Below are positions 5,801 through 40,436 of a DNA stretch of 64,000 nucleotides, piece by piece. The position numbers were made by a program, and so were the translations under genes. Within the stretch, counting starts at the first letter, position 1, and every line of letters starts with the position of its first letter. A model generated the notes under the pieces. It was not told where the DNA came from and ran no database searches. It saw nothing but the letters and a program-made list of their open reading frames with translations. This stretch comes from Thermoleophilaceae bacterium (GTDB lineage: Bacteria > Actinomycetota > Thermoleophilia > Solirubrobacterales > JACPNS01): positions 57,481 to 121,480 of the forward strand of contig JAEMSX010000002.1 of NCBI GenBank assembly GCA_016462645.1, in the 5' to 3' direction.

Positions 5801-5833
5801 CTGGCTTCCTCAACAAAATCACGAGGAAGCCGG
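5801..5833. repeat. GGCTTCCTC-type hairpin repeat, single copy
   Basis: CTGGCTTCCTCA-acaaaatca-CGAGGAAGCCGG, an 11-bp stem (one G:U). Starts 6 nt after the stop at 5795. Same arms as the array at 22874-23093 and the copy at 40406-40436. Confidence 0.7.
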
Positions 5834-19684: not shown

Positions 19685-22396
19685 GTGGCCAAAGCTGATC
19701 CAGACGCACGCAAGCTCTACCTGCTCGACGGCAACTCGCTGGCCTACCGCGCGTTCTTCGCGCTGCCAGACACGTTCGTGAACGCGAAGGGCATGCCGAC
19801 CGGTGCGCTCTTCGGCCTGGCAAACATGTGGGTGAAGCTGATCGAGGACAACGACCACGGCACGCCGGCTGTGATCGCAGTCTGGGACGCCGGCCTGTCT
19901 GGTCGTGGAGAGATCTACGAGCCGTACAAGGCGCAGCGCGACGCCAAGCCCGATGCCCTGCGCGAGCAGTGGCCGCACTTCTATCCGCTGGCCGAGGCTT
20001 TCGGCTTCAAGAACGTGCGTGTCGACGGTTGGGAAGCAGACGACGTGATCGCGTCGATCGCCGAGAAGGCCAAGGCCGAGGGCTACTGCGTTGTCATCGT
20101 CACCGGCGACCGCGACTCCTTCCAGCTCGTCGACGACGAGCACGGCCCCGTGACGATCATGGCCACCGGCCGAGGAATCACCGACACGACGATCTACGAC
20201 GAGGGCGCGGTTCAGGAGCGCTACGGAATCCCGGCACGGCTCGTGCCTGACTTCATCGGCCTGAAGGGCGACACCTCGGACAACATCCCTGGCGTCCCCG
20301 GCATCGGCGAGAAGACTGCGATGCAGCTGCTCCAGGAGTTCGGCGGACTCGAAGAGGTGCTCGCCAACATCGACAACATCTCCGGCGCCAAGCGCAAGGA
20401 GAATCTCGCCAACAACGCCGACCTCGCACGGATCTCGCGCGATCTGGCGACCATGCACCGCGACATCGAGTTGCCCGAACTCTCAATCGAAGAAGTCTTC
20501 GCGTCGCGGATCGACCCGAAGGCGCTGCGCGACCAACTGCGCGAGAACGATCTGCGCGAGCCGTTGCGCCGGGTCGAGCGGCTCTTCCAGGAGGCCGAGT
20601 TCGAGGGCATCGAGGATGAGATTCGCGAGGCGATGGCTGAGGAGTCCGGCGCGGAGGAGGCTGTCGCGGAGATCACGGTCAAGCAGACGCCGGTAGGGGC
20701 GCTCGAGAAGGTGTTCACCGACCCTGCGCAGTTTCTCGTCCATCGCGCGGATGCCGCGCTTGACGGGCCGGCCGATTCCCTCCTGGCCGACGCCGAGAAT
20801 CAGTCAGCCGGCGAAGCGGCGCGCTACGCGGTCGTCGCGAAGAACGGCGTGGTGCATGTTGGTGAGGCGGCTTCGGTGGAGGAGTTCCTGGCGCTCGTTG
20901 GTGAGCGCGCGGTGGTCACGCATGACCTCAAGGCGCAGCTCGAGCGCACCGACGCGGCTGTTCCGCAGCTCGATCACGACACGCGCATTGCTGCCTACCT
21001 GATCGATTCGGCGCGACGCCAGTACGCGATTCGCGAGATGGCGATCGAGCTGGGCGTGCAGCCGGGCGCGGTGGACGACGACGCGATCCCGGCCGAACTC
21101 ACCCAGCTGGCGATTGACGCCGACGCGATGGTTCGCGTCGCCGAGCTTCAGCGCGAAGAGCTGAAGTCGTTGGGCCTCGAGAAGGTCGAGAAGGAGGTCG
21201 AGCTCCCGCTCGTCTCCGTGCTCGTGGAGATCGAGCGCAATGGTCTGAAGCTTGATGTCGACGCGCTGGCGAAGGCTGCCGAGGGATTCGTCGAGGAGAT
21301 CGCTCAGCTCGAGTCCGACATCTACGAGCTCGCCGGCAGGCAGTTCACGATCGGCTCGCCCAAGCAGCTCGGACCGATCCTCTTCGAGGAACTCGGTCTT
21401 CCCGCCGGACGCAAGGGCAAGACCGGGTACTCGACCGACGCTCGCGTGCTCGCGGGAATCCGCGACAAGCACCCGATCGTGGAGAAGATCGAGCGCTGGC
21501 GCGAACTGACCAAACTGAAGAGCACATATGTGGACTCGCTGCCCAAGGACGTCTCGCCCAAGGACGGCCGCATCCACACCACGCTCGACCAGACGCGCGC
21601 GGCGACCGGGCGCCTCAGCTCGACCAATCCCAACCTGCAGAACATCCCCGTGCGCACGCCGCTCGGCGCGACGATCCGCGAGTGCTTCGTCGCAGAGCCG
21701 GGGATGATCCTGACCAGCGCCGACTATTCACAGGTGGAGCTGCGCGTGCTGGCGCAGGTCGCAGACGACGAGGTCCTGAAGGACATTTTCCGCCGCGGTG
21801 AAGACGTGCACACAGAGACCGCTGCCGCAATCTTCGGTATCGATCCCGCCGATGTCGACCACGCCACGCGCGATCGCGCCAAGGCCGTCAACTTCGGGAT
21901 CATCTACGGGCTGAGCGCGTTCGGCCTGAGCGACCGCCTGAAGATCCCGCGCGATGAAGCCGCCGAGTTCATCAAGCGCTACCTCGGCCGCTTCACCGGC
22001 GTGAAGCAGTTCATGGACGACACGGTCGCCCAGGCCAAGAAGGACGGCTATGTCACGACCCTGATCGGCCGCCGCCGCGCGATCCCGGAGATCAACTCCT
22101 CGCAGGTCCAGACGCGCAACCTCGGCGAGCGGCTCGCGATCAACACCGTCGTGCAGGGCACCGCCGCCGACATCATCAAGCAGGCGATGATCGATGTGAG
22201 CAAGGCTCTGGCCGAGAGTGGCCTCAAGACCAAGCTTGTTCTGCAGATTCACGACGAACTGCTTTTCGAAGGGCCGAAGGACGAGGCCGACGCAATCGCC
22301 GAGCTGGCCGTGCGCGTGATGGCCGACGCCTATCCGCTCGATCCGCCGCTCGGTGTGTCGGTCGGCTCGGGCCCGAACTGGCTCGCTGCCAAGTAG
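19685..22396 (+). CDS. polA: DNA polymerase I
   Basis: 903 aa, GTG start. 5' nuclease N-terminus (LLDGNSLAYRAFFAL, GDRDSFQL). Polymerase motifs DYSQVELRVLA, RDRAKAVNFGIIYG, QIHDELLFE. Confidence 0.97.
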   Translation: MAKADPDARKLYLLDGNSLAYRAFFALPDTFVNAKGMPTGALFGLANMWVKLIEDNDHGTPAVIAVWDAGLSGRGEIYEPYKAQRDAKPDALREQWPHFYPLAEAFGFKNVRVDGWEADDVIASIAEKAKAEGYCVVIVTGDRDSFQLVDDEHGPVTIMATGRGITDTTIYDEGAVQERYGIPARLVPDFIGLKGDTSDNIPGVPGIGEKTAMQLLQEFGGLEEVLANIDNISGAKRKENLANNADLARISRDLATMHRDIELPELSIEEVFASRIDPKALRDQLRENDLREPLRRVERLFQEAEFEGIEDEIREAMAEESGAEEAVAEITVKQTPVGALEKVFTDPAQFLVHRADAALDGPADSLLADAENQSAGEAARYAVVAKNGVVHVGEAASVEEFLALVGERAVVTHDLKAQLERTDAAVPQLDHDTRIAAYLIDSARRQYAIREMAIELGVQPGAVDDDAIPAELTQLAIDADAMVRVAELQREELKSLGLEKVEKEVELPLVSVLVEIERNGLKLDVDALAKAAEGFVEEIAQLESDIYELAGRQFTIGSPKQLGPILFEELGLPAGRKGKTGYSTDARVLAGIRDKHPIVEKIERWRELTKLKSTYVDSLPKDVSPKDGRIHTTLDQTRAATGRLSSTNPNLQNIPVRTPLGATIRECFVAEPGMILTSADYSQVELRVLAQVADDEVLKDIFRRGEDVHTETAAAIFGIDPADVDHATRDRAKAVNFGIIYGLSAFGLSDRLKIPRDEAAEFIKRYLGRFTGVKQFMDDTVAQAKKDGYVTTLIGRRRAIPEINSSQVQTRNLGERLAINTVVQGTAADIIKQAMIDVSKALAESGLKTKLVLQIHDELLFEGPKDEADAIAELAVRVMADAYPLDPPLGVSVGSGPNWLAAK

Positions 22397-22409
22397 GGGT
22401 GGGGCGGTG

Positions 22410-22859
22410 ATGGATCGCACGCTCGCCGTGCTGCTCACCGCCGGGGTCGGCGGACTGCTTGCCGCGCAGGCGCCGATCAACGGTCAGCTCGGTCTGCATG
22501 TCGGCAAGCTGCAGGCGGCGATGATCTCGTTCGTCGTCGGGACGGCGCTCCTGAGCATGATCGTCTTCGCCTTCGCCGGTGGTCTTCCGGACGGCACCGG
22601 CGTGGGGACGGTGCCTTGGTACTACTTCATCGGCGGCCTGCTCGGCGCCGGATACATCACCACGGTGATCTTCACGGTCGGGACTCTGGGCGCCGGGGGC
22701 ATCACCGCTGCGACGATCTCCGCGCAGCTGGTCACCTCGATGCTGCTGGACCAGTTCGGGGCCTTCGGCCTCGACAAACACCCGATCACCTGGACCCGCC
22801 TGCTCGGCGTTCTGTTGCTCGCAGCAGGCACCTACCTCGTCGTCGCCGGCCGCGGCTGA
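22410..22859 (+). CDS. DMT-superfamily small membrane transporter (YdcZ/DUF606-like)
   Basis: 149 aa from MDRTLAVLLTAGVGGLLAAQAPINGQLG. About 5 TM. The track start at 22353 overlaps the polA end and is rejected. Confidence 0.6.
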   Translation: MDRTLAVLLTAGVGGLLAAQAPINGQLGLHVGKLQAAMISFVVGTALLSMIVFAFAGGLPDGTGVGTVPWYYFIGGLLGAGYITTVIFTVGTLGAGGITAATISAQLVTSMLLDQFGAFGLDKHPITWTRLLGVLLLAAGTYLVVAGRG

Positions 22860-22873
22860 TCGCCGCATCGACT

Positions 22874-23093
22874 GGCTTCCTCGCGACGCCGCCGAGGAAC
22901 CGAGTGGCTTCCTCACGACGCCGTTGAGGAACCCACTGGCTTCCTCAATACCGCGCTGAGGAAGCCACTCGGTTCCTCGGGGTTTCGCTGAGGAAGCGCG
23001 GTGCCTCCTCGGCGAACACGCGAGGAAGCGCGGTGCTTCCTCGGGCAATCGCTGGGGAAGAACGGTTGCTCCTCACGCGAATCCCGAGGAGGC
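22874..23093. repeat. Array of 7 tandem hairpin (palindromic) units, period 32-33 bp
   Basis: Unit starts are at 22874, 22906, 22938, 22971, 23003, 23035 and 23068. Each unit is G(G/C)(C/T)TCCTC(A/G)-loop 9-11 nt-(C/T)GAGGA(A/G)(G/C)C. Unit 3 is a perfect 10-bp stem (GGCTTCCTCA / TGAGGAAGCC). Outer units degenerate. Confidence 0.85.
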
Positions 23094-23170
23094 GCGCGCG
23101 GGCTCGATTTTCCCGCAAACCACGCAATCGCAGGCCCCGTGCGGGGATGCGGGTGACCGCGTTTTGGTAT

Positions 23171-23190
23171 GCAGAGTTGTATACAGCTCT
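23171..23190. promoter_or_regulatory. 20-bp palindrome, candidate GntR operator 1
   Basis: CAGAGTTGTATACAGCTCTG; 9 of 10 positions pair as an inverted repeat. Lies 129-148 nt upstream of the GntR ATG. Confidence 0.5.
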
Positions 23191-23219
23191 GAACACATGG
23201 CTAAACGGGGCCTGTGCAT

Positions 23220-23227
23220 TTTGTACA
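23220..23227. promoter_or_regulatory. TTGTACAA palindrome, candidate GntR half-strength site / promoter overlap
   Basis: Perfect 8-bp palindrome in an AT-richer patch (cattTTGTACAAgctgagataaaagg). Confidence 0.3.
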
Positions 23228-23294
23228 AGCTGAGATAAAAGGGGATTGCGAGCGCGCCTAACTTGCCCCGTAATGCGTTGCTCGTCTACATCTC

Positions 23295-23308
23295 GGTATA
23301 CAACTCTG
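23295..23308. promoter_or_regulatory. Candidate GntR operator 2 (inverted copy of operator-1 half-site)
   Basis: GGTATACAACTCTG is the reverse complement of CAGAGTTGTATACC and matches 13/13 of the left half of operator 1. Lies 11-24 nt upstream of the ATG at 23319. Confidence 0.5.
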
Positions 23309-23318
23309 GACTCGGAAC

Positions 23319-24071
23319 ATGTCTCCGCGTGACCTCATCGCTCAGCTACTTGAGCAGGGGGGCGCCGACGACGTGAGCGGTGGCGACTCGATCGCAGAAC
23401 GCGTCTACCAGGACCTTCGCGGCGAACTGCTCTTCGGGCAGATCCCGCTCGGTGAGCGCCTGGTCGAGGAGCATCTCGCCGAGCGCTACGAGTGCAGCCG
23501 CACGCCCGTCCGCGAGGCGCTGCATCGCCTCCAGGCCGACGGCCACGTCGTCAAGCATCCGATGGGCGGAATCACTCCGCAGCCGCCGCAGGCGACCGCG
23601 CTCGAGGAGCTCTACGAGCTTCGCGTCGTGCTCGAGGACCTGATCGTCCGCCGTGCCGCGAACGCCGAGGAGAAGCTCGAGGTCGCCGACCTGCGCGCCA
23701 GCTGGGCCGAGCTCGCTGAGCTCGACCCGGAGCGTCGCGCCAGGATCGGCACACCCGACTTCGTCTACGCCGATGAGGCCTTCCACGAGGGCCTCGCTGC
23801 CGCCGCCGGAAACCACTCGGCCGCGCGCTACCTGCGGGACATCAACGAGCGCATCCGCATCCTGCGCGTCCACGACTTCACGACCGACGACCGCATCGAC
23901 GCCACGATCGTCGAGCACATCGAGATCGCAGATGCGGTGCTCGCCGGCGAGGCTGACGCCGCCGCCGCGCTGATGCGCGTTCACATCGACCGCAGCGCTC
24001 GTGTCGTTGAAGACCGCGTGGGCCGGATGCTCACAAGAATGTTCGACGCATCACAAGGGAGCGCCGAGTAG
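23319..24071 (+). CDS. GntR-family transcriptional regulator (FadR/FCD-type C-terminal domain)
   Basis: 250 aa. w[33 protein letters not shown]. All-helical C-terminal domain with His residues ([14 protein letters not shown]). Confidence 0.88.
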
Positions 24072-25627
24072 TGGAAGCTCAGATGAACCCCGAGCCGACT
24101 CCGTCGGTCGCCGTCATCGGTCTGACCAAGCGTTTCGGCAGCCTGGTCGCCAACAACAAAGTCGACTTCGAGCTCTACCCCGGCGAGGTGCACGCGCTAC
24201 TCGGCGAGAACGGCGCCGGCAAGTCCACGCTCGCGAAATCGCTCTACGGCGTGAACGTGCCCGACGAGGGCCAGATCCTCGTCGACGGCGAGCCGCTCGA
24301 GATCGACTCACCGGCGGTCGCCCGCGAAGCCGGCATTGGGCTCGTCTTCCAGGACTTCCGGCTGATCCCGGCGCTCACCGTGCTCGAGAACATCGCGCTC
24401 GCGCTTCCCGAGCACGGCATTCTGCTCAACAACGACGAGATCGAGGAGCGCTTCGTCGCGCTCGCCGAGCAGTACAACATGAGCGTTCACCCGCATCGCC
24501 TGATCGAGGAGATCTCGATGAGCGAGCGGCAGCAGGCGGAGATTCTCAAGGTGCTGCTCTGCGGCGCCAAGACCGTCATCCTCGACGAACCCACCAGCCT
24601 GCTCGCACCGCAGGAAGTCGAGGGCCTGATGAACGTCATCCGCGATCTGCGCGACCAGGGCTTCGCGCTGGCGATCATCACGCACAAGATTCCGGACGTT
24701 CGCGCCGTCTGCAACCGCGTCACGATCCTGCGCCAGGGCACCGTCGTCTTCGCAACCGACAAGCTCGCCGAAATGAGCGACGAGGAACTGATCGACAACG
24801 TGGTCGGCCAGGAGATCCCGACGCTCACGCATCGCCCGCAGGTGGTCGCGCACGCAGAGGGTCCGGCCCTGATGCTCGAACACATCACGGTCAACGGCGA
24901 CAACGACCTTCCGGCGATCAAGGGACTCACGCTGGTCGCAGAGCGCTGCGAGGTGATCGGCGTCGCCGGCGTCTCCGGCGGTGGTCAGCGCGAGCTGGCC
25001 GAGGCGATCATGGGCTTGCGGCCCCTCGTCAACGGCCAGATCTCGGTGCGCGGCGCGCACGTCGAGGGCAAGACCGTCGAGGAGATCCGCGAAGCCGGCG
25101 TCGCCGTGATGGCCGAAGACCCGCTTTCGATGGAAGTCGTTCCCGGCCTCAGCATCGCCGAGCACATGGCGATCGGCGGCATCGATCCGCCGAAGACGCG
25201 CATCGGTTACGACTGGAAGCGCGTCGCCGAGGAGACCGGCGATCTCGAGTCCGCCAAGGCGATCGGGCTCGCCGACCCCAACCGCCGCGTCGACTCGCTC
25301 TCGGGCGGAAACGTCCAGCGTCTGATGATCGTCCGCTCGCTGGTCAGCGACCCGAAGGTCGTCGTGGCTTGCTACCCGACCCGCGGACTCGACCTTTTCT
25401 CAGTCAGCACCACGCACAAACTGCTCTTTGAACAGGCAGAGAAGGGGGCAGCAGTGATTTTCATCTCGGAAGATCTCGACGAGCTCTTCACCGTCAGCGA
25501 CCGGCTCATCGTGCTTCACGACGGCGAACTGGCCGGCGACCTCAAGCCGTCGGAGACGACGCGTGCCGAAGTCGGCGCGATGATGCTCGGACGAAAAGAA
25601 GCTGAAGAAGCGGCGGCAATCGGATGA
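24071..25627 (+). CDS. ABC transporter ATP-binding protein, duplicated ATPase (BMP/sugar-type importer)
   Basis: 518 aa. Walker [10 protein letters not shown], signature-like MSERQQAEI, Walker B VILDEPT. Second, degenerate domain ([18 protein letters not shown]). GTG overlaps the GntR stop by 1 nt. Confidence 0.9.
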
Positions 25628-26649
25628 GTGCTCCGGACGCCACAGTCACCACCGGCGAGGAATCGCGCGGCTTCGACCCGCGGGCCTGGGTGCCCACCGG
25701 CACGTGGTTCAAGATCGCCGCGCCGATCGCCGCGCCGCTGCTGATTCTTCTGATCATCCCGCTCTTCGGGATCGACGTGCCGGCTGTGATCACTCGCTCG
25801 GTCCCATTCATTCTCGCCGCGCTCGCCGTGGCGCTCCCTGCGCGTGCCGGGTTGATCAACGTCGGAGGTGAGGGTCAGATCTTCATCGGCGCGGTCTTCG
25901 GCGCCGCGTTCGTGAAGATTGTCGGTGGCGGCCTGCCGCTCCCGGTGATGCTGCCGATGGTTCTGATCGCCGGCACGATCGGTGGGGCGCTCTGGGTCGG
26001 CATCGCGGCGTTCCTGAAGGCCTACTTCAACGTCAACGAGACGATCGCGACGCTGCTGCTCAACTACGTCGCGCTCTACGTCCTCTCGTACATGGTCAAC
26101 GGCGCGCTGAAGGACCCGGAGTCCTACGGCTTTGCGATCGGAGCGATGCTCCCCGACTCGGCGCTGCTGCCGCAGCTCGGAATCTCGACGCTGAGCATCG
26201 GCATCGTGCTCGCCGTACTGATGACGATCGCAGTCTGGCTTCTGCTCGATCGCTCGCGCTGGGGCTTTCGCGCGAAGGTCGTCGGCGGCAACCCCGAGGC
26301 GGCCCGTCGGGGCGGCTTCGCGGTCAACCGCACCGTTGTGACGGCGCTGCTCCTCGGTGGAGCGATCGCAGGATTCGCGGGCGTCGTCGAACTCGCGGGA
26401 ACTGAACTCCAGCTCCGCGCGCAGATGGCGACCGGCTTCGGTTACATCGGCTTCCTCTGCGCCTTTCTCGTAGCTCAGCGCGCCGCCTGGATCCCGGCCG
26501 GCGCGATGTTGCTGGCAGCCATCTCGGTCTACGGCGACAGCCTGCAGCTCGACTTCGGTCTCCCGGCGGCAAGCGTTTACGTGGTGATGGCCGTAATCGT
26601 CCTGTTTGTACTCGGAATGCGTGGCACAAAAACGAAAGGCGCCAACTGA
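25624..26649 (+). CDS. ABC transporter permease 1
   Basis: 341 aa polytopic. Overlaps the ATPase stop. Confidence 0.88.
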
Positions 26650-27557
26650 TGCTTGAAGCAATCATCCTCGGAGCCGTCAGTTACGGCGCATGCCTGATCT
26701 TTGCCGCTGAAGGCGAGCTGATCGCAGAGCGCTCCGGCATCGTCAACCTCGGCACAGAGGGCTCGATCCTCTGCGGCGCGCTGCTGTCGTTCATGGTCAC
26801 GGTCTGGACGGGCTCGCCCTACATCGGCGCGATCTTCGGACTCGTCGGCGGCGCACTGCCGGCTCTGCTCCACGCGTTCATGGTCGTGGGCCGCAAGGCT
26901 GACCAGCTCGCCAGTGGTCTCGCGATCACGTTCCTCGGACTCGGCGTCACAGCCGCGCTCGGCAAGAGCTTCGTCGACGACAAGATCAACGGCATGGATG
27001 CGATCGGCATTCCGCTGCTCAAGGACATCCCGCTGATCGGAAGCGCCTTCTTCGACCAGGACATCCTGACCTACCTCGCCCTGCTCGTCGGACCGGCGCT
27101 CTGGTGGTTCTTCAAGCGCACCCGCGCCGGTTTGATCCTGCGCGCGACCGGTGAGAGCGGCGACGTCGTCTACGCCTACGGTCACTCGCCGCGCAAAGTC
27201 CGCTATCTCGCGGTCACCGCCGGCGGCGCGCTGGCCGGACTCGGTGGCGCGCAGCTGGTGCTCGCGACCACGCTCAACTGGACCGAGAACATCACGCAGG
27301 GTCGCGGCTTCGTCGCCGTCGCGCTCGTGATCTTCGCCTCCTGGCTTCCGCTCAGGGCGGCCGGCGGAGCGCTGCTCTTCGGCGCTGCCTTCGCGCTCAA
27401 CCTCGTGCTCCAGACCGAGGGCGTCGGAATCCCATCCTTCTATCTGCTGATGCTCCCGTACGTGCTGACTCTGATCGTTCTTGCGGTCACGAGCAAGGGG
27501 CAGAAGCAGATGATGCCGGCCGGATTGAAGGCCGTGTTCGCTCCCGGTGGGACGTAG
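26649..27557 (+). CDS. ABC transporter permease 2
   Basis: 302 aa polytopic. Start overlaps the permease-1 stop. Confidence 0.88.
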   Translation: MLEAIILGAVSYGACLIFAAEGELIAERSGIVNLGTEGSILCGALLSFMVTVWTGSPYIGAIFGLVGGALPALLHAFMVVGRKADQLASGLAITFLGLGVTAALGKSFVDDKINGMDAIGIPLLKDIPLIGSAFFDQDILTYLALLVGPALWWFFKRTRAGLILRATGESGDVVYAYGHSPRKVRYLAVTAGGALAGLGGAQLVLATTLNWTENITQGRGFVAVALVIFASWLPLRAAGGALLFGAAFALNLVLQTEGVGIPSFYLLMLPYVLTLIVLAVTSKGQKQMMPAGLKAVFAPGGT

Positions 27558-27638
27558 TCGCACCGGTCGTCCCAGGTCTCTCTCGCAACACCCAAATGCT
27601 CGTCAACAACCTCCTCGATTGAAAGGGAAATTCCCCCA

Positions 27639-28772
27639 ATGCTCAAACGATCCTCAAAGTGGCTGGCTTTCGTAGCCCTCGCCATGCTCTCGGCTTTCGG
27701 AGTCACCGCGTGCGGCTCCGATACCGCGACTTCAACCTCCGGAGACGCGGAGGGGCAGACCGTCGGCTTCCTCTACGTCGGACCGAAGAACGACTTCGGC
27801 TACAACCAGGCGGCCTACGAGGGCTCGCTCGAGGTTGAGAAGAACGTCCCCGGCACCAAGCTGATCCAGGCTGAGAACGTGCCTGAGACCTCTGAAGCTT
27901 CTCGCGTGATGGAGAAGATGATCAAGGACGGCGCGACGACTATCTTCGCCACCAGCTACGGCCACCTGCAGCCGATGCTGGCTGTCGCCAAGAAGCACCC
28001 GGAAGTCACCTTCGAGCACCAGGGCGGCGTGAAGTCCGGTGCCAACGTCGGCACGTACTTCGGCCAGATCTACGAGGCCCAGTACCTGACCGGAATGGCA
28101 GCGGGACTCTCGACCAAGTCGAACAAGCTCGGCTACGTCGTGGCTGTGCCGATCCCGCAGACGCTGCTCAACATCAACGCTTTCGAGCTCGGCGCTCAGT
28201 CGGTCAACCCGAAGGCGAAGACGACAGTCGTCTTCACCGGCTCCTGGTGTGACCCCGCGAAGCAGAAGGAAGCCGCAGACACGCTGATCCAGGGCGGCGC
28301 TGACGTGCTCAGCCAGCACCAGGACTGCACCAAGACGATCGTCGAGACGACGGAGAAGGCCGGCGCGATGTCGGTCGGATACCACGCCGACGCATCCTCG
28401 CTCGCCCCGAACGGCTGGCTCACCGGCTCCGTCTGGAACTGGGGACCGCTCTACACCGACATCGTGAAGACGATCGGCGAGGGCAAGTGGAAGGGCTCCA
28501 AGTACGACGCCGACTACCGCGTCGGGTTCGCCGACAGCGACGTCATCGAGCTGGCTCCGTTCGGATCGGCCGTGACGCCGGAGGTCGAGAAGCAGGTCCT
28601 CGCTAAGCAGGAAGAGATGAAGGCGAAGGACTTCTATCCGTTCGAAGGCCCGGTCGTGGACCAGGCTGGCAAGACCCAGATCCCGAAGGGCGAGAACCCG
28701 ACCCCTGCCGAACTCGAGACCACCGACTACCTGGTCCAAGGCGTCGTCGGCAAGATCCCGACAGGCAAGTAG
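27639..28772 (+). CDS. BMP-family (PnrA/Med-like) ABC substrate-binding lipoprotein
   Basis: 377 aa. Signal plus lipobox (FGVTAC GSD). VGFLYVGPKNDFGYNQA and YVVAVPIPQ are typical of basic-membrane-protein SBPs. SD GAAAGGGAAA upstream. Confidence 0.85.
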   Translation: MLKRSSKWLAFVALAMLSAFGVTACGSDTATSTSGDAEGQTVGFLYVGPKNDFGYNQAAYEGSLEVEKNVPGTKLIQAENVPETSEASRVMEKMIKDGATTIFATSYGHLQPMLAVAKKHPEVTFEHQGGVKSGANVGTYFGQIYEAQYLTGMAAGLSTKSNKLGYVVAVPIPQTLLNINAFELGAQSVNPKAKTTVVFTGSWCDPAKQKEAADTLIQGGADVLSQHQDCTKTIVETTEKAGAMSVGYHADASSLAPNGWLTGSVWNWGPLYTDIVKTIGEGKWKGSKYDADYRVGFADSDVIELAPFGSAVTPEVEKQVLAKQEEMKAKDFYPFEGPVVDQAGKTQIPKGENPTPAELETTDYLVQGVVGKIPTGK

Positions 28773-28792
28773 CGACTGCGACCACGATCGGA

Positions 28793-29386
28793 ATGTCAAA
28801 CGCATCAACACAAGACGTCTCGGCTGATGCGCCGATCGTGGTCAGCGGCACCCGCCCGTATGCATGGCCCTACGACAGCCGGCTCGACCCCACGGACTTC
28901 GCGTTCGTGGTGGTCACCGGCTCGTCGGCCGGCCAGAGCGGGCAGCCGCCGGCAGACCTCGTCGAGGCCTGCAAGGCGTTCGCCGCAAAGGTGACCGCAC
29001 TCGGTGGCTCAGTCATCTGGACGGCGTGCAACGGAAGCGCGCTCCCCGATGGACTGGCGAGCACGGACATGACGTCCGAATCGCCGACCTCGAACGGCAT
29101 GATCGGCGGCGAACTGGAGCTGATCCTGCGCAGCCAGGGCATCGACCGCTTTGCGATTGCGGGCTGGCCCCTTGAGATCGCCGTTCACTCAACACTGCGG
29201 CGCGCAAACGACATCGGCTACGAGTGCATCCTGCTCGAAGACCTCTGCGTGCCGCTCGACCCGGACCTCATGGAATCGTCTGTCTCACAGATCCTGATGT
29301 CCGGAGGAATCTTTGGCGCCGTGGGCGAATCCGCGGCGCTGCTCGAAGCATTGAACACTTCAACCCCCGAAGGAGACCAGGCGTGA
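28793..29386 (+). CDS. Isochorismatase-like hydrolase paralog lacking the Asp-Lys-Cys triad (predicted pseudoenzyme)
   Basis: 197 aa. Homologous to the next gene (PYAWPY; [17 protein letters not shown]; [15 protein letters not shown]). It has T42 for Asp and A130 (GCC 29180-29182) for the nucleophile Cys. No equivalent Lys, and a ~40-aa deletion. Confidence 0.8.
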
Positions 29387-30099
29387 TGGAGACCACTGCG
29401 CTGGGCGAGAAGCGGATCACTGGCGTCGCTGGAGACCCGTATGACTGGCCCTACAACCAGAATCTCGACCTTGAGAAGACCGCGCTCATTCTGATCGACT
29501 GGCAGACCGACTTCTGCGGCGAGGGCGGCTACGTCGACCACATGGGCTACGACCTTGCACTCACCCGGGCGGGAATCCCGGCGACTCAGAAGGTGCTGGC
29601 GCGCTGGCGCGAGCTGGGCCTGCTCGCCGTGCACACGCGCGAAGGGCACAAACCCGACCTCTCGGACTGCCCTCCTAACAAGCTCTGGCGCTCGAAGCAG
29701 ATGGGGGCCGGGATCGGCGACTCAGGTCCCTGCGGCAGGATCCTCGTGATCGGCGAGCCGGGCCAGGACATCGTGCCCGAGCTGTACCCCGAGCCGGGCG
29801 AGATCGTGATCGACAAGCCCGGCAAAGGCGCGTTCGTGGCGACAAACCTCGACCTGATCCTGCGCACCAACAACATCGAGAACCTGATCTTCACCGGCAT
29901 CACCACCGACGTGTGCGTGCACACGACGATGCGTGAGGCGAACGACATGGGTTACGAGTGCCTGCTGCTTTCAGACTGCACGGGCGCCACGGACTACGGC
30001 AACTACGAAGCCGCGCTCAAGATGGTCAAGATGCAGGGCGGAGTCTTCGGGTCGGTTGCGACCAGTGAAGACCTGCTCGGCGCCTTGTCGGTCCTTTAG
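29386..30099 (+). CDS. Isochorismatase-like cysteine hydrolase (intact triad; biuret-hydrolase/CSHase-like subgroup suspected)
   Basis: 237 aa from [10 protein letters not shown] (ATGA overlap with the preceding stop at 29384-29388). LILID38WQTDF, VIDK144PGKGAF, TTDVC177VH (TGC 29914-29916). The track start at 29224 overlaps the previous gene and is rejected. Confidence 0.88.
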
Positions 30100-30110
30100 G
30101 GGGCCGCCGG

Positions 30111-31553
30111 ATGACAAGCGTTGCAACAAATGCCTTCGCGTGGGCACTTGAGTACCTCGCGGAGTGGGACACCGACGACCTCGAGCGCCGCGTCGCCTTC
30201 GACCTGTGGGCCGGAGAGCGCGGGGTGGGGGCGGCGAGCGGCACGCCGACCACCGTCGGTGTTGATTCAGGCAGGATCGCTGAGGCTGCCGCAAAGCTGG
30301 CCTCCGGCGAGACAACCTCGGTCGCCCTGGTCGAGGAGGCCCTTGCGGTCGCCGCCGATCACAACGAGCGGCTCGTCGGATTCGTCGAGCTCACCGCAGA
30401 ATCGGCACTGGCCGACGCAGCCGCGCTCGACGCCGAGCGCGCCGCCGGTGAAGTGCGCGGACCGATGCACGGAATCCCGATCTCCGTGAAGGACGTGATC
30501 CACGTCGCCGGCGTTCCGACGCGCTGCGGCTCGGACGCCTTTGAGGCGCTGCCTGAACACGACGCCTGGGCCGTCGCGCGCATGCGCGAGGCCGGCGCGG
30601 TGATTCTCGGCAAGGTCGCAACGCACGAGTTCGCGCTCGGCGTCACCTCGCCGCAGTCGCGCAATCCTCACGATCCCACCCGTATTCCCGGGGGATCCTC
30701 CGGCGGTTCCGCCGTCGCCGTCTCCACCGGCATGGGGCTGGGCTCGATCTGCACCGACACGCGCGCTTCCTCACGCGTGCCCGCAGCACTGAGCGGAGTG
30801 GTCGGAATGAAGCCGACCTACGGAACGGTCCCGACCAAGGGTGTCGTGCCGCTGGCCTGGACGATGGACCACGTCGGCGTGATCGCCGACACCGTGGCCG
30901 ACACGGCGACGATGTTCGACATCCTGCGCGACCTGCCACCGATGGCGCCGGGAGTGAATGACGGGGTGGAGGGATTGAAGCTCGGCCTCCCCAGGGCAGC
31001 GTTTGAAGATGTCGATCCCGACGTCGAGGCGGTCGTGCGCGCCGGCGTCGAGCGGCTCGTCGGGGCCGGCGCAACGACGATCGACCTCGACACGCCGGGG
31101 GAACCCGACTTCACCGGAGCGAACGCCGGCGGCATGATCACGAGTCGTTGTGAGGCGGCAACCTTCCACAAATTCATCGACACCGACCGCAGTCTTTACT
31201 GGGGCGAGGTCCGCGACCAGCTCAACGCCGCAGACGAAGTGCTCGCCACCGAGTATCTCCAGGCTCAGCGCTACCGCGCGTGGCTGCGCGAGCGCATGCT
31301 CAAGGTCTTTGAGGGCGTGGACGCGCTAGTGATGCCGACCGTCCCTGTGCTGGCCCCGCCGGTCGAGGACGCCGACGACTACCTGACGATCCTCTCGCGT
31401 AACGCGATCCTCTGGAGCTTTGTCGGATTCCCAGCGATCTCGGTGCCTGCCGGCAAGTCGCCGTCGGGTCTGCCGATCGGCCTGCAGGTCGTCGGCGCCC
31501 CGTTTGCGGAGCGCACGCTGATCGCCGTCGCCGCAGCAGCCGAGACGGACTGA
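30111..31553 (+). CDS. Amidase-signature family amidase, copy 1
   Basis: 480 aa. SVKDV (Lys), GGSSGGSAVAV (cis-Ser), TDTRASSRVPA (nucleophile Ser retained). Confidence 0.9.
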   Translation: MTSVATNAFAWALEYLAEWDTDDLERRVAFDLWAGERGVGAASGTPTTVGVDSGRIAEAAAKLASGETTSVALVEEALAVAADHNERLVGFVELTAESALADAAALDAERAAGEVRGPMHGIPISVKDVIHVAGVPTRCGSDAFEALPEHDAWAVARMREAGAVILGKVATHEFALGVTSPQSRNPHDPTRIPGGSSGGSAVAVSTGMGLGSICTDTRASSRVPAALSGVVGMKPTYGTVPTKGVVPLAWTMDHVGVIADTVADTATMFDILRDLPPMAPGVNDGVEGLKLGLPRAAFEDVDPDVEAVVRAGVERLVGAGATTIDLDTPGEPDFTGANAGGMITSRCEAATFHKFIDTDRSLYWGEVRDQLNAADEVLATEYLQAQRYRAWLRERMLKVFEGVDALVMPTVPVLAPPVEDADDYLTILSRNAILWSFVGFPAISVPAGKSPSGLPIGLQVVGAPFAERTLIAVAAAAETD

Positions 31554-31604
31554 AGTCCACTGCGAACTGGGTTTGTCCACACGGAGAGTCGCCCAGCGCG
31601 ATTT

Positions 31605-31617
31605 TTGTACGGCACAA
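31605..31617. promoter_or_regulatory. TTGTACGGCACAA imperfect palindrome in the inter-amidase gap (possible additional GntR-type site)
   Basis: TTGT-N5-ACAA with 5 of 6 pairs complementary. Shares the TTGTA half-site with the 23.2-kb operators. Lies 108-120 nt upstream of the ATG at 31725. Confidence 0.25.
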
Positions 31618-31724
31618 GCACGGGGCGGGTCGCCTGCGCGGGTAGCTTCGGTCTACAGCCACAGGTACGTACGTCGCGGCACCCCGTTAGCGATGGTGGC
31701 TTCACCCAACAGATTGATCAATTG

Positions 31725-33173
31725 ATGTCGAACCTGGCAACTGACGCGTTCCAGAACGCACTTGCGCTGCTCAGAAAGTGGCGCGCCGAGCGGGCAGACG
31801 CAGCTCCGGCATACGCCCTTGAGCTGCCGGTGGACCGCCCGAGCGAGCGTCCGGTCCAGCCTCCGTCACCGCGTCGTGGCGCGATCGCGTCCACCGAGCG
31901 GTTGCTCGATTCGCACGACGTCACTTCGGAAGAGCTCGTCTCGCGCTCACTGCGGGCGATCGCCGATCAGAACGATGAGCTCTACGCATTCGTGGAGATC
32001 CTCGAGGTCGAGGCGCTCGCGCGGGCAAAGAAGATGGACGTCGAGCGCGGCGCCGGCCGCGTGCGCAGCCCGCTGCACGGCATTCCCGTGTCGGTCAAGG
32101 ATCTCTACGCCGTGAAGGGCGGGACGACTCGCGCCGGCTCGCTCGGCTATGAACGCCGCGACGACCACGACGCCGTAGCCGTCAAGCGCCTGCGTGAGGC
32201 CGGAGCCGTGGTGATCGGTAAGACATCAACGCATGAGTTCGCGATGGGCGTGATCGCGCCCCAATCGCGCAATCCCCACGACACGACGCGTATTTCCGGT
32301 GGATCCTCCAGCGGCGCCGCCATCGCAGTCGCCACCGGAATGGGCATGGCGGCGCTCGGCACCGACACGCGCGGGTCGATCCGCATTCCCGCGGCGCTCT
32401 GCGGAGTCGTCGGCCTGAAACCGACTTTCGGGACGATCCCGCTGGATGGCGTGGTGCCGCTGGCGTGGTCGATGGATCACGTTGCGGTGATGGCGCCGTC
32501 CGCGGATGACGCCGCGACCGTGCTCGACGCCCTGACTCCGGAGAAGAAGACGGTCGACACGCCCGTCGCCGCGGTCAGCGACATTCGCGTAGGCCTGCCG
32601 CGCACGGCCTGGCGTGACGCCGAGCCGGCGGTCGAGCATTCGCTGGAGTCTGTGATGGACACGCTTGTCGCGACCGGCGTTGAGATGGTCGATGTGCAAC
32701 GCCCGAGCGCGATCGACTTCGACAACGCGAATCTCACCAGCATGGTCGTCTCGCGCTGCGAGGCGGCGGCGTTCCATCGCGATCTGGGTCTTGATCCGAT
32801 TCTCTACACGTCCGATGTGCGCACGCAGCTTGAGGTTGCCTCGGAGGCCACCGCGCAGGACTACATCGATGGCCAGCGCCTGCGCGCCGAGCTCCAGCGC
32901 GACATGCTCAGAGTCTTCGAGGACGTCGATGTGTTGTTGATGCCGACTGTGCCGATCGTCGCGCCGACCGTCGAGACCGCGGACCAGACCCCGCTCGTGC
33001 TCACGCGCAACGTCGCACTCTGGAGTTTTGTCGGATTTCCGGCCATCACGGTCCCGTGCGAGCCTTCGCCCGCGGGTCTGCCGATCGGCCTTCAAATCGT
33101 TGCCGCGCCGCACCGGGAGGCCGCGATTCTCGCGGTTGCCCGTGCAGTCGAGCGAGGGGTGAACGCGCGATAG
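31725..33173 (+). CDS. Amidase-signature family amidase, copy 2 (tandem paralog)
   Basis: 482 aa from MSNLATDAFQNAL (parallels MTSVATNAFAWAL of copy 1). SVKDL, GGSSSGAAIAV, TDTRGSIRIPA. The track start at 31605 is rejected. Confidence 0.88.
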   Translation: MSNLATDAFQNALALLRKWRAERADAAPAYALELPVDRPSERPVQPPSPRRGAIASTERLLDSHDVTSEELVSRSLRAIADQNDELYAFVEILEVEALARAKKMDVERGAGRVRSPLHGIPVSVKDLYAVKGGTTRAGSLGYERRDDHDAVAVKRLREAGAVVIGKTSTHEFAMGVIAPQSRNPHDTTRISGGSSSGAAIAVATGMGMAALGTDTRGSIRIPAALCGVVGLKPTFGTIPLDGVVPLAWSMDHVAVMAPSADDAATVLDALTPEKKTVDTPVAAVSDIRVGLPRTAWRDAEPAVEHSLESVMDTLVATGVEMVDVQRPSAIDFDNANLTSMVVSRCEAAAFHRDLGLDPILYTSDVRTQLEVASEATAQDYIDGQRLRAELQRDMLRVFEDVDVLLMPTVPIVAPTVETADQTPLVLTRNVALWSFVGFPAITVPCEPSPAGLPIGLQIVAAPHREAAILAVARAVERGVNAR

Positions 33174-33248
33174 CGGTCAACGGGGCATTCCCGACTCGAC
33201 CCGCCGACGGTACCGGTCGCCGGGGTGTACGGGAGGCTCGTAGGCAGA

Positions 33249-33280
33249 GGGTCCGGCAGAGATGCCGGGCCCTTTGTCGT
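33249..33280 (+). terminator. Rho-independent terminator closing the amidase locus
   Basis: GGGTCCGGC-agagat-GCCGGGCCC (9-bp stem, one G:U) followed by TTTGTCGTT. Confidence 0.7.
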
Positions 33281-33374
33281 TCTCCGACTGTTCCTGGCGA
33301 GTGAATTGGCCGAAATTCCGCATCATTGGTAGCCTTAGAGGTTCTGCAAATCCACCTACTAGTTAGAAGTTCAC

Positions 33375-34922
33375 GTGTCAACGACCCTTACCGAATCACC
33401 CGCAGTGGCCGAACCTACGGCCGCCGCACCTGAAACCGAAGCCCCTGCCGGAAACGTAGTTCCGGGATCCGACGGCCTGCTGCTCGAAGTCGACGGCAAG
33501 ATCGTCCCCAACTACGCCGCAACACTTGTCAACTTTGACGACGGAGACGTCGTCCAGGGCACGGTTGTCCAGATCGACCGCGACGAAGTTCTCGTCGACA
33601 TCGGATACAAGTCCGAGGGCGTCATCCCGGTCAACGAGCTTTCGATCCGCAAGAACGTCAACCCCGCCGATGAGGTCTCGCTCGGCGAAGAGGTCGACGC
33701 ACTTGTCGTCACCAAGGAAGACGCCGATGGGCGCCTGGTGCTCAGCAAGAAGCGCGCCAAGTTCGAGAAGGCATGGCGCAAGATCGAAGAAGCTGCCGAG
33801 TCTGGTGAGCCGGTTGAAGGAACCGTTATTGAAGTGGTCAAGGGTGGTCTGATCGTGGACCTCGGAATCCGTGGATTCCTCCCCGCATCGCTCGTGGACA
33901 TCCGACGCGTCCAGGACCTCGATGAGTTCCGCGCCACAACCGTGCGCTGCAAGGTCATCGAGCTCAACCGCTCACGCAACAACGTTGTGCTCTCCCGCCG
34001 CGCGATTCTCGAAGAAGAGCGTCGCGAAGTGCGCCAGCAGATCATCGGCTCGCTCGAGCGCGGTTCTGTTGTCGAGGGTGCGATCAGCAACATCGTGGAC
34101 TTCGGTGCATTCGTCGACCTCGACGGCATCGACGGCCTGATCCACATTTCCGAGCTCTCCTGGAGCCACGTCAACCACCCGAGCGAAGTTGTTTCGATCG
34201 GTGACGTCGTCAAGGTCAAGGTGCTCGACATCGACCACGACCGCCAGCGCATCTCACTGGGTCTCAAGCAGACCCAGGAAGACCCGTGGCAGAAGGTCAT
34301 CGACACGCACCACATCGGTGACGTGCTCGAGGGCACCGTCACGAAGATCGTCTCCTTCGGAGCGTTCGTCGAGATCTACAACGGCGTCGAGGGTCTCGTG
34401 CACATCTCGGAACTCTCCGAGCAGCACGTCGAGAACCCGCGTCAGGTGCTCAACGAGGCAGACGTCGTGCGCGTCCGCATCCTCGAGATCGACACCGAGC
34501 GTCGTCGCCTTTCCCTGAGCGCCAAGCAGGTTGATGGTCAGGAACTCGTTCCGGCCGAGCTCAACGAAGAGGGCGAAGTCATCACGCCGAAGGACCACGA
34601 CGTCGAAGAGGCGATCGCGGAGGCCCTTGGCGACCTCGACCTCGGCGACCTGAGTGAAGCGGCTCCGGAAGCCGAAGCGGAAGCCGCAACCGAAGCCCCT
34701 GCTGAAGAAGCAGCCCCGGCCGAAGAAGCTGCTCCTGAGGCTGAAGTAGCTGAAGAGGCGCCTGCCGCCGAAGAAGCTCCCGCCGAAGACGCCGGCGACT
34801 CCGCCGACGGCAACCTCGAGGACGCCGCTCCCGAGGTCGACCCGGCTCTGGAAGCTGGCAGCGCCGACACCGTCGACGCCGATGGCGATGAAGCCCCCGC
34901 CGCGGAAGCGCCCGCTGAGTAA
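33375..34922 (+). CDS. rpsA: 30S ribosomal protein S1 with acidic Ala/Glu-rich C-terminal tail
   Basis: 515 aa, GTG start. Four S1 repeats (GDVVQGTVVQID, VEGTVIEVVKGGLIVDL, VVEGAISNIVDFGAFVDL, VLEGTVTKIVSFGAFVEI). Confidence 0.95.
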   Translation: MSTTLTESPAVAEPTAAAPETEAPAGNVVPGSDGLLLEVDGKIVPNYAATLVNFDDGDVVQGTVVQIDRDEVLVDIGYKSEGVIPVNELSIRKNVNPADEVSLGEEVDALVVTKEDADGRLVLSKKRAKFEKAWRKIEEAAESGEPVEGTVIEVVKGGLIVDLGIRGFLPASLVDIRRVQDLDEFRATTVRCKVIELNRSRNNVVLSRRAILEEERREVRQQIIGSLERGSVVEGAISNIVDFGAFVDLDGIDGLIHISELSWSHVNHPSEVVSIGDVVKVKVLDIDHDRQRISLGLKQTQEDPWQKVIDTHHIGDVLEGTVTKIVSFGAFVEIYNGVEGLVHISELSEQHVENPRQVLNEADVVRVRILEIDTERRRLSLSAKQVDGQELVPAELNEEGEVITPKDHDVEEAIAEALGDLDLGDLSEAAPEAEAEAATEAPAEEAAPAEEAAPEAEVAEEAPAAEEAPAEDAGDSADGNLEDAAPEVDPALEAGSADTVDADGDEAPAAEAPAE

Positions 34923-40405: not shown

Positions 40406-40436
40406 CCGGCTTCCTCATCAAAACCTTGAGGAACCG
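40406..40436. repeat. GGCTTCCTC-type hairpin repeat, single copy
   Basis: CCGGCTTCCTCA-tcaaaacct-TGAGGAACCG. Begins 1 nt after the TAG at 40403-40405, between convergent genes. Confidence 0.65.

Follow-up and report, generated by a model that had tools for sequence, protein, structure and literature searches.

A predicted biuret-utilisation gene cluster of a Thermoleophilaceae bacterium pairs the hydrolase BiuH with a catalytically dead paralogue

Results

Gene content of the cluster

The DNA analysed here (the window) comprises 64,000 nucleotides of a Thermoleophilaceae bacterium (contig JAEMSX010000002.1, positions 57,481 to 121,480), and it carries a nine-gene cluster that probably serves the use of biuret. 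A preliminary description, made from the sequence without database searches, had placed between positions 23319 and 33173 a FadR-type GntR regulator, an ATP-binding cassette (ABC) protein with duplicated ATPase, two permeases, a BMP-family lipoprotein taken as substrate-binding protein (SBP), two isochorismatase-like hydrolases (IHLs) and two amidase-signature (AS) amidases. The list of open reading frames and Pfam searches recovered all nine genes, co-directional on the + strand and of the families claimed (Table 1). The G+C content at third codon positions is 0.79 to 0.87 in each of them, as is typical of real genes in a 65% G+C genome, and we thus consider all nine frames to be coding.

The genes are closely spaced. 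From gntR to the SBP gene the junctions are, in order, overlaps of 1, 4 and 1 nt followed by a gap of 81 nt; from the SBP gene to amiB they are a gap of 20 nt, an overlap of 1 nt and gaps of 11 and 171 nt. We compared the cluster with a sample of 80 loci taken from a scan that used one genome per species, and the order GntR, ABC ATPase, permease, permease, Bmp, psIHL, BiuH is kept across these 80 species loci.

Table 1. Genes and candidate regulatory features of the cluster (positions in the window)
Feature	Coordinates	Strand	Evidence or remark
gntR, FadR-subfamily regulator	23319-24071	+	PF00392 + PF07729
ABC protein, two fused ATPase domains	24071-25627	+	PF00005 x2
ABC permease 1	25624-26649	+	PF02653 (BPD_transp_2)
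ABC permease 2	26649-27557	+	PF02653 (BPD_transp_2)
BMP/AtzT-like lipoprotein SBP	27639-28772	+	PF02608
psIHL, catalytically dead BiuH paralogue	28793-29386	+	isochorismatase family
biuH, biuret amidohydrolase orthologue (predicted activity)	29386-30099	+	NF050097
amiA, AS amidase	30111-31553	+	PF01425
amiB, AS amidase, paralogue of amiA	31725-33173	+	PF01425
O1, candidate GntR/FadR-type operator, palindrome around TTGTATACA	23172-23191	+	13-nt perfect inverted match to O2
P1, bipartite promoter-like motif, TTTTGTAC-N32-TAACTT	23219-23264	+	upstream of gntR
O2, candidate operator, GGTATACAACTCTG	23292-23308	+	10 nt before gntR start
P2, motif copy, N32 spacing as in P1	31603-31648	+	amiA-amiB gap
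GC-rich hairpin, probable terminator with weak U-tail	33243-33278	+	folding

The active hydrolase is a predicted BiuH

We corrected the start of biuH from GTG 29224 to ATG 29386, which has a GAAGGAG ribosome-binding site, overlaps the preceding stop by 1 nt and gives a product of 237 residues. This product scored 389.3 bits with the NCBIfam equivalog model NF050097 (EC 3.5.1.84), passing the cut-off of 370. As a control, the TrtA-like paralogue of the Rhizobium biuH cluster reached only 248 bits, meaning that the model tells BiuH from TrtA-like proteins. Compared with solved structures, the window protein gave 344 bits to BiuH (6AZO, 6XJM) and 198 bits to TrtA (6XIX), and gapless alignments showed 66.5% identity to the Rhizobium leguminosarum enzyme (RlBiuH) and 68% to that of Rhodococcus sp. 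Mel. The DPYDWPY N-terminus and the Gly/Pro-rich insertion, which the preliminary description had linked to BiuH-like enzymes, both occur in the protein, and neither needs a gap in the alignment with crystallised BiuH.

The catalytic residues reported for BiuH are D36, K142 and C175; biuret is contacted by K145, I170, T171 and Q215, the last in trans, and F41, Y47, V174 and V218 line a pocket that is reported to be highly specific for biuret (PMC5806882). The Asp36-Lys142-Cys175 triad is intact in the window protein (D38/K144/C177 in its own numbering, from the gapless alignment with 6AZO). When the catalytic and pocket residues were compared (RlBiuH numbering: D36, Q38, F41, Y47, K142, K145, F148, T151, G169, I170, T171, V174, C175, T179, Q215 and V218), all 16 were identical to those of RlBiuH, including a Val and not an Ile at position 218. 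Isochorismatase proper, nicotinamidase and RutB were each considered for this protein and rejected on scores. By every sequence test run, the gene is a BiuH orthologue, with biuret hydrolysis as its predicted activity.

The neighbouring paralogue psIHL has lost its catalytic residues

The pair of IHLs in the preliminary description thus contains one predicted enzyme, BiuH; its other member is a dead paralogue. This protein, psIHL, has by its sequence a BiuH-derived fold and is not an enzyme of the BiuH family. At the positions of D36, K142 and C175 it has T, S and A, K145 and Q215 are both changed to S, and about 40 residues of the middle region are missing. It is closer to Rhodococcus BiuH (83 bits) than to TrtA (43 bits), is 36% identical to the adjacent BiuH across the C-terminal 97 residues, and reaches only 78.9 bits with NF050097, on the C-terminal part. 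An AlphaFold2 (AF2) model had a pLDDT of 92.3, and its nearest folds were the BiuH structures 6AZO and 6XJM (TM 0.69-0.73).

The triad is lost in 119 of the 120 closest database relatives of psIHL, which have its invariant motifs in common; family members are 33-90% identical to the window protein, with the motifs invariant throughout. Relatives were found in 268 species genomes of Actinomycetota and Chloroflexota, and cultured carriers include Cellulomonas, Nocardioides, Microbacterium, Agromyces, Streptomyces and Aquihabitans. Among the loci compared, psIHL lies immediately 5' of an intact BiuH in 76/76 pairs measured; in 45 of these pairs the psIHL stop and the BiuH start share 4 or 1 nt. 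A search of a plasmid collection yielded no counterpart of psIHL, and the characterised Rhizobium locus has none either. Within the limited reach of our search, we found no description of psIHL in the biuret literature.

Could psIHL be a functionless biuH duplicate in decay, leaving the cluster to run on BiuH alone? The lack of all catalytic residues, the deletion of about 40 residues and an evolution faster than that of BiuH would agree with this. We strongly disfavour this explanation, to which we give almost no weight. Its Ka/Ks (ratio of nonsynonymous to synonymous substitution rates) against three orthologues was 0.16-0.30, indicating that psIHL is under purifying selection, and the invariant motifs, the confident AF2 fold, the presence in 268 species, the constant position, the translational coupling and the fusions described below (58 clusters) also argue against decay.

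In BiuH the dimer is formed by helices alpha2, alpha4 and alpha5, and Gln215 enters the active site of the neighbouring protomer (PMC5806882). We measured how well the corresponding regions are conserved as the mean top-residue frequency over the 76 psIHL/BiuH pairs (Table 2). These frequencies show that psIHL keeps the parts that contact the other protomer while its own pocket drifts.

Table 2. Mean top-residue frequency by region in 76 psIHL/BiuH pairs (RlBiuH numbering)
Region	psIHL	BiuH partner
Own pocket positions	0.47	1.00
Donated loop 214-221	1.00 (MSGGIFGA)	0.99 (MQGGVFG)
alpha4 dimer helix 176-190	0.87	0.94
N-terminal PYxWPY	0.84	0.87
All aligned positions	0.57	0.83

Gene fusions are classic evidence of two proteins working together physically. 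A profile search returned proteins with two domains, and of the 120 best relatives of one such protein, 58 distinct clusters were psIHL-BiuH fusions, in which the N-terminal half is dead and the C-terminal half is an intact BiuH; the three that were looked up all occupy the same operon slot. Taken together, these data make it fairly probable that psIHL is a non-catalytic subunit of BiuH. It most likely joins BiuH in a hetero-oligomer, to which it would bring the dimer-interface helix and the C-terminal loop donated to the neighbour.

Several observations weigh against such an assembly or narrow its form. A strict 1:1 loop-swap heterodimer predicts a relaxed Gln215 loop in the BiuH partners, but this loop is kept in 100% of the partners, which such a heterodimer does not explain. 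The recombinant BiuH enzymes of Rhizobium and Rhodococcus are active alone, as homotetramers (PMC5806882, PMC7948467), so that psIHL would be an accessory without a general requirement in catalysis. Finally, an AF2 model of a natural psIHL-BiuH fusion, built on a 53-sequence alignment, had good domains but a pTM of only 0.61. Two arrangements fit the data. In the first one (a), BiuH homodimers and psIHL homodimers would share one tetramer, which accounts for BiuH keeping its Gln loop but not for the invariant psIHL loop. In the second one (b), loop-swapped BiuH:psIHL dimers would form, suggesting an enlarged pocket; this would explain why the Ser/Ile loop is invariant, but not why BiuH conserves its own Gln loop, unless both dimers exist.

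Arrangement (b) opens the way to a change of specificity. The psIHL subunit might donate a Ser and a TrtA-like Ile in place of Gln215 and Val218 in the loop-swapped dimer, which we regard as unlikely. It is equally doubtful, in our opinion, that the enlarged distal pocket lets the heteromer act on triuret, 1-carboxybiuret or an N-substituted biuret, and only tentatively can one propose that BiuH homodimers handle biuret while the AmiA-clade amidases described below, with an AtzH-like protein where present, process carboxylated products. The idea draws on published enzymology: Gln215 comes from the neighbouring protomer and determines the specificity for biuret, and the chief difference between TrtA and BiuH is the position of this Gln, held out by Ile205 in TrtA (PMC7948467, PMC5806882). 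It draws also on the invariant Ser and Ile of psIHL, found at exactly the Gln215 and Val218 positions while its own pocket drifts, on the parallel between two-IHL layouts (BiuH with an active TrtA in proteobacteria and algae, BiuH with psIHL in actinobacteria), and on the AtzH-like genes of 5 related loci. Set against this are the 100% conservation of the Gln loop and of the whole biuret pocket in the BiuH partners, and a plain allophanate hydrolase as the commonest gene downstream of biuH, which fits biuret as substrate. Moreover, the Q215A change cripples RlBiuH instead of retargeting it (PMC5806882), and carboxybiuret is unstable and its import unlikely.

Other domain combinations appeared in the fusion list. 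In two rare eukaryotic relatives, the MMETSP transcripts P0283 and P0467, the N-domain keeps the D/K/K/C residues and has a degenerate trans loop, and the C-domain has lost Cys175 and Lys145 with a perfect KMQGGVFG loop kept. This looks like a natural pairing of an active domain with a loop donor, and indicates that dead domains of this family can act in that way. About 55 clusters, mostly from green and other eukaryotic algae, are single polypeptides in which BiuH and TrtA-like domains are joined, both of them intact and the second with a Q...I loop; they include Chlamydomonas CHLRE_10g448500, Micractinium, Scenedesmus and Symbiodinium (P0252, P0404, P0410, P0413, P0427), and an AH_C domain is added in P0441 and P0497.

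The AS amidases AmiA and AmiB form a clade of their own

We corrected the start of amiB from TTG 31605 to ATG 31725, which gives 482 residues and an N-terminus, MSNLATDAF, that parallels AmiA and its orthologues. AmiA matches PF01425 at 297.6 bits and is 50% identical to AmiB, and the Lys/cis-Ser/Ser triad is kept in both, in the motifs VKD, GGSS and TDTR(A/G)S (TDTRAS in amiA). Neither protein passes any NCBIfam cut-off. With the GatA model TIGR00132 they score 237-243 bits (cut-off 481), and no gatB or gatC lies in the cluster; the outcomes that the preliminary description had named as contrary to its proposal, an isochorismatase proper and amidases of the GatA type, were thus not encountered. 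With AtzE models they score 262-275 bits and fail the cut-offs of 426-461. No AtzG or AtzH homologue was found in the window, and the N-terminal extension of the amidases has no similarity to AtzG.

A neighbour-joining tree was built from 78 AS amidases of related loci together with AtzE, AtzF and the Thermus thermophilus amidase 2DC0. One canonical allophanate hydrolase (AH) clade holds AtzF, all proteins with an AH_C domain and two proteins without it. The AmiA/AmiB type forms a separate monophyletic clade, apart from AtzF/AH and outside the AtzE branch. It is marked by a THEFALGVTxPQS-RNP segment with a 5-residue deletion, by TDTRAS and SRcEA, and by a conserved N-terminal extension of about 60 residues. 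In this tree, AmiB is the product of a duplication inside Solirubrobacterales; it is missing from the related loci L014-L016.

We then looked at the genes that accompany biuH in the 80 loci. The gene directly 3' of biuH encodes an AH-clade amidase in 39 and an AmiA-clade amidase in 18; no AS amidase occurs anywhere in the locus in 13, AH lies elsewhere in the locus in 5, and the remaining 5 are other cases (contig ends, no psIHL called, AtzE-like amidase elsewhere). A full-length AH-clade and a full-length AmiA-clade amidase were never found in one locus (0/80). Because the AmiA type occupies the same slot as AH and the two clades do not co-occur, AmiA-type enzymes are predicted to hydrolyse allophanate. 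The same role was suggested in 2025 for a 'gatA-like' amidase beside biuH in ammonia-oxidising archaea (PMC12625717).

It is from synteny that we draw this assignment, under which AmiA and AmiB probably hydrolyse allophanate, and a number of points weigh against it. Both proteins fail the allophanate hydrolase models TIGR02713 / PRK08186 (208-223 bits, cut-offs 487-511), contain only PF01425 and end after the AS domain, with no AH_C (PF21986). They do not have the AH motifs KDNiDV, DQfATGL and TDTAGSGRVPA, and the LYaGpWvAER (Y...R) motif, invariant in 45 AH-clade sequences, is absent from 28 AmiA-clade sequences; we take the Y...R pair to be the allophanate-binding residues of Granulibacter AH. 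Thirteen psIHL-BiuH loci, mainly of Cellulomonas, lack any AS amidase within about 9 kb. In two loci, the AmiA-clade amidase is followed by an AtzH-like gene. The amidase could there act like AtzE, with a carboxylated ureide as substrate, or the AtzH-like protein could be a substitute for AH_C.

These AtzH-like (PF11533) genes (L091 11959-12342 and L092 11876-12289) encode proteins 44-47% identical to pADP-1 AtzH, and both loci carry a fused psIHL-BiuH gene. AtzH-like genes were also seen in L022, L070 and L072; outside the loci with the fused gene they stand beside AtzE-like amidases. The loci without amidase are L018, L020, L024, L028, L029, L035, L045 and L055 (Cellulomonas) and 5 others; allophanate might there be handled by an AH encoded at another genomic site, or decay spontaneously to urea for a urease. 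A third AS amidase, at the edge of the window (52-1326, +, open reading frame of 424 codons for amino acids, PF01425 at 315 bits), is about 28% identical to AmiA and is no member of the cluster; its best NCBIfam match, PRK07869, is below the cut-off, and a hexapeptide-repeat transferase gene follows.

The binding protein differs from AtzT at ligand-contacting positions

The SBP matches PF02608 at 155.9 bits, and a lipobox, ...GVTAC, can be read directly from its sequence. Its best solved relative is AtzT of pADP-1 (6PI5; 258 bits, 41% identity), and it is 46% identical to the Bmp protein of the Rhizobium biuH cluster. The other components are related to the same two systems: the ABC ATPase protein is 36% identical to the ATPase of the pADP-1 AtzT system, permease 1 is 36% identical to a permease of the Rhizobium biuH cluster, and permease 2 is 40-43% identical to the Rhizobium and AtzW permeases.

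In AtzT, guanine is sandwiched by Tyr45 and Trp194 and hydrogen-bonded by Ser97, Glu165, Asn218 and Asn220; AtzT binds guanine tightly (~110 nM) and also 2-hydroxyatrazine (PMC6834077). We aligned the window SBP with 85 other BiuH-linked Bmp proteins, including that of the Rhizobium cyanuric-acid/biuret cluster. The pattern Y45 S97 Q165 N169 W194 H218 D220 is common to all 86, so that positions 165/218/220 are Gln/His/Asp in 86/86 BiuH-linked proteins against Glu/Asn/Asn in AtzT. Thus the SBP keeps Y45, S97 and W194 of the purine-binding set and departs from it by E165Q, N218H and N220D. The view of the preliminary description that BMP-family SBPs bind purine nucleosides and related compounds holds as far as the nearest solved relative, AtzT, binds guanine; this SBP departs from AtzT at three hydrogen-bonding positions. 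Since the aromatic sandwich is kept and the three positions are invariantly changed, the BiuH-linked Bmp proteins may share a planar ligand other than guanine. Most actinobacterial loci have BiuH and neither cyanuric acid hydrolase nor TrtA, which makes biuret the simplest candidate, and we infer that the SBP binds biuret or a close planar ureide. We found no ligand study of the Q165/H218/D220 subgroup in the literature searched.

Import of a purine, nucleobase or nucleoside, as by PnrA and AtzT, followed by enzymes acting on a ureide derived from purine or pyrimidine, would be an alternative interpretation. Among solved relatives of the SBP, AtzT has guanine as its ligand and 3S99 has adenine, the Y45/W194 sandwich is retained, and the nitrifier literature discusses biuH clusters in connection with the products of purine breakdown (PMC12625717). 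We nevertheless judge it improbable: three of the guanine-contacting residues are changed, invariantly, in all BiuH-linked SBPs, the BiuH pocket is reported to be highly specific for biuret (PMC5806882), and no purine-catabolic genes were found in the cluster or the window.

Candidate operators and transcription units

The GntR regulator matches PF00392 (winged helix-turn-helix, 59.8 bits) and PF07729 (FCD, 76.2 bits), and its gene is at the same position in most related loci. Two candidate operators, O1 and O2, are centred on TGTATACA, as is typical of palindromic operators of FadR-type GntR proteins; the 64 kb contain only 3 GTATAC sites, two of them in the O1/O2 region. Upstream of gntR in the nine orthologous loci examined, TGTATACA sites are present in most, with none in L016. 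The bipartite motif TTTTGTAC-N32-TA(A/G)CTT has only two matches in the 64 kb, one 5' of gntR (P1) and one in the amiA-amiB gap (P2). The ATTTTGTAC part of P1 recurs upstream of gntR in 7/9 orthologous loci and as a variant in the other two, and the P2 motif is kept in the amiA-amiB gap of 7/7 orthologous loci that have amiB (L001, L008-L013). In one of these (L001), amiA is followed by a hairpin and T-run and then by the P2 motif. We suggest that P1 may be a promoter or an operator.

The preliminary description had read the overlapping and closely spaced genes as one unit. The spacing is as described, but the motif copy in the amiA-amiB gap, kept in orthologues, points to amiB as a second, co-regulated transcription unit, and the nine genes would probably form two units rather than one. 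The strong terminator hairpin announced after amiB was also recovered, at 33243-33278: it folds with a dG of -33.6 kcal/mol (z = -4.1), and 0/200 shuffled sequences fold as well. A rule-based consensus scan for promoters and terminators called no sites, this hairpin included, whose U-tail is poor. The amiA-amiB gap, folded as 146 nt, folds no better than shuffled sequence (z = +0.46), and an Rfam scan of 22300-33500 at a permissive E-value gave nothing credible, with no riboswitch in the leader or the amiA-amiB gap.

Between ydcZ and the gntR promoter (22871-23061) lie six tandem copies, with a 32-nt period, of the hairpin unit GCTTCCTC-N11-GAGGAAG. This pattern has 19 matches on both strands of the window against 0.18 expected; outside the tandem array, single copies lie at 5804-5830 and at 40409-40435, while the copy at 16674-16700 is weaker. 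The repeats look like an intergenic element family of the REP (repetitive extragenic palindromic) type, and comparable GGAAG repeats are found at the same place in L009.

Genomic setting

The cluster is flanked upstream by polA and a gene for a YdcZ-type membrane protein, and downstream by rpsA, coaE, a gene for an SLT-domain protein and uvrB. By its sequence, this flanking order is core actinobacterial synteny of a Solirubrobacterales-like chromosome. Ten related Solirubrobacterales/Thermoleophilia genomes share the polA-ydcZ-[cluster]-rpsA placement, at 50-95% identity of the cluster proteins; the closest is a metagenome-assembled genome of Solirubrobacterales (L008). From this shared placement we conclude that the cluster is old in the lineage and no recent insertion. 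A nucleotide search of the whole cluster against plasmids returned only short ABC-ATPase matches, and no close mobile relative.

Related modules frequently contain an extra gene, absent from the window, for a PcaD/RutD-like alpha/beta-hydrolase of full length or in a short form of about 197 residues. Its place is either the interval from Bmp to psIHL or, in divergent orientation, the region 5' of gntR (L003 9198-10004, L006 9249-9995, L007 9406-9999 and many of L019-L087). In one Acidimicrobiales genome (L006/L067, 11302-16338), the module abuts a convergent gene set for a carboxyltransferase of the urea/guanidine-carboxylase type, an allophanate hydrolase, a pair of DUF1989 proteins and an ABC transporter of the NMT1 type, and several allophanate-generating routes are therefore clustered in this genome.

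Discussion

Biuret and triuret are impurities of urea fertiliser, which is used on a very large scale, and intermediates in the breakdown of s-triazine herbicides, and the soil organisms that degrade them, and their means, are only partly known. We think it reasonably probable, from sequence comparison, that the cluster is a GntR-regulated operon for the use of biuret (carbamoylurea) as a nitrogen source. In the proposed pathway, the BMP-type lipoprotein would bind extracellular biuret and the ABC transporter would bring it in. BiuH, by an Asp-Lys-Cys cysteine-hydrolase mechanism, would cut one terminal amide to give allophanate and NH3. AmiA, with AmiB as its lineage-specific duplicate, would then deamidate allophanate through the Ser-cisSer-Lys triad in place of the canonical allophanate hydrolase, and the resulting N-carboxycarbamate would decompose to CO2 and NH3. 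The FadR-type GntR protein probably represses the operon at the TGTATACA palindromes until an effector binds. The outline of the preliminary description, with import by a BMP-type ABC system, C-N hydrolysis by an IHL and deamidation of a biuret-like substrate by AS amidases, is supported and sharpened by this. It had stated that the gene combination was no pathway it could name; the route from biuret through allophanate to NH3 and CO2 is known, and similar sets exist in Rhizobium and nitrifiers (PMC12625717). One point that counts against the proposal is the source of biuret, as no cyanuric acid hydrolase or TrtA is encoded in the 64-kb window; genes for allophanate hydrolase, urea carboxylase or DUF1989 proteins were looked for there as well, and none was found.

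The Actinomycetota and Chloroflexota lineages that carry the module are abundant in soil and little studied. Our analysis places a complete, chromosomally conserved module, predicted to act on biuret, in Solirubrobacterales and in at least 268 species of the two phyla. A widespread pseudoenzyme partner, coupled or fused to BiuH, may explain BiuH function or substrate in Gram-positive bacteria; a distinct AS clade appears to replace allophanate hydrolase; and Q165/H218/D220 marks biuret-linked BMP proteins and could correct routine 'nucleoside transporter' annotations. Should the change of specificity considered above be true, psIHL would be an undescribed class of subunit that completes the BiuH active site in trans, its Ser/Ile loop adapting one catalytic gene to a second and larger substrate such as triuret, carboxybiuret or a related ureide. 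In that case an enzyme and a pseudoenzyme would do for Actinomycetota and Chloroflexota what BiuH and TrtA do for Proteobacteria and algae.

The nearest described system is the cyanuric-acid/biuret cluster of R. leguminosarum. It shares with the window a BiuH with an identical active site (66.5% identity), a BMP-type SBP with Q165/H218/D220 (46% identity), two permeases, a double ATPase and a GntR-family regulator. It differs by its AtzD, TrtA-like IHL and cupin; cyanuric acid hydrolase, formamidase, an active TrtA-like IHL and a cupin are all missing from the window. Only the window has psIHL, a co-directional regulator and AS amidases inside the cluster. The combination of BiuH, a BMP-type ABC transporter and gntR with allophanate hydrolase or a 'gatA-like' amidase has been described for nitrifiers (PMC12625717). 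The triuret-biuret pathway of Herbaspirillum and nitrifiers comprises TrtA, TrtB, BiuH, AtzF and bmpA-nupABC (PMC7948467, PMC12625717). It also leads from biuret through allophanate to ammonia, and its genes, too, lie together with gntR and those of a BMP-type ABC transporter. In contrast, the window has neither TrtA nor TrtB, and its co-occurring BiuH homologue is catalytically dead. Ammonia-oxidising archaea have an uncharacterised 'gatA-like' AS amidase in place of AtzF (PMC12625717).

For the amidases, AtzF/AH shares with AmiA and AmiB the AS fold, the triad and the slot directly after biuH; AmiA and AmiB differ by their separate clade, the absence of AH_C and of the AH motifs, the 5-residue deletion, TDTRAS in place of TDTAGS and the clade-specific N-terminal extension of about 60 residues. 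AtzE-AtzG of Pseudomonas sp. ADP, the 1-carboxybiuret hydrolase, is an AS amidase of similar length from the same metabolic neighbourhood, and sets a precedent in that its catalytic subunit depends on a small, vestigial protein that is itself non-catalytic. In the window, however, the non-catalytic partner belongs to the IHL enzyme and not to the amidase, and AtzG and AtzH are absent. For the binding protein, AtzT (6PI5) and the window SBP have the Y45/W194 sandwich, S97 and N169 in common and differ by E165Q, N218H and N220D. Enzyme/pseudoenzyme heteromers such as metformin hydrolase MfmAB and the trypanosome AdoMetDC-prozyme also have a dead paralogue beside the active enzyme, with which it apparently assembles; they are of other fold and chemistry than psIHL, whose assembly and effect are predictions. 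Altogether, the window cluster differs from the described biuret clusters by psIHL, by its duplicated AmiA-clade amidases and by having no upstream biuret-producing enzyme. The biuret pathway itself was already known, and the new element of the cluster is psIHL paired with BiuH.

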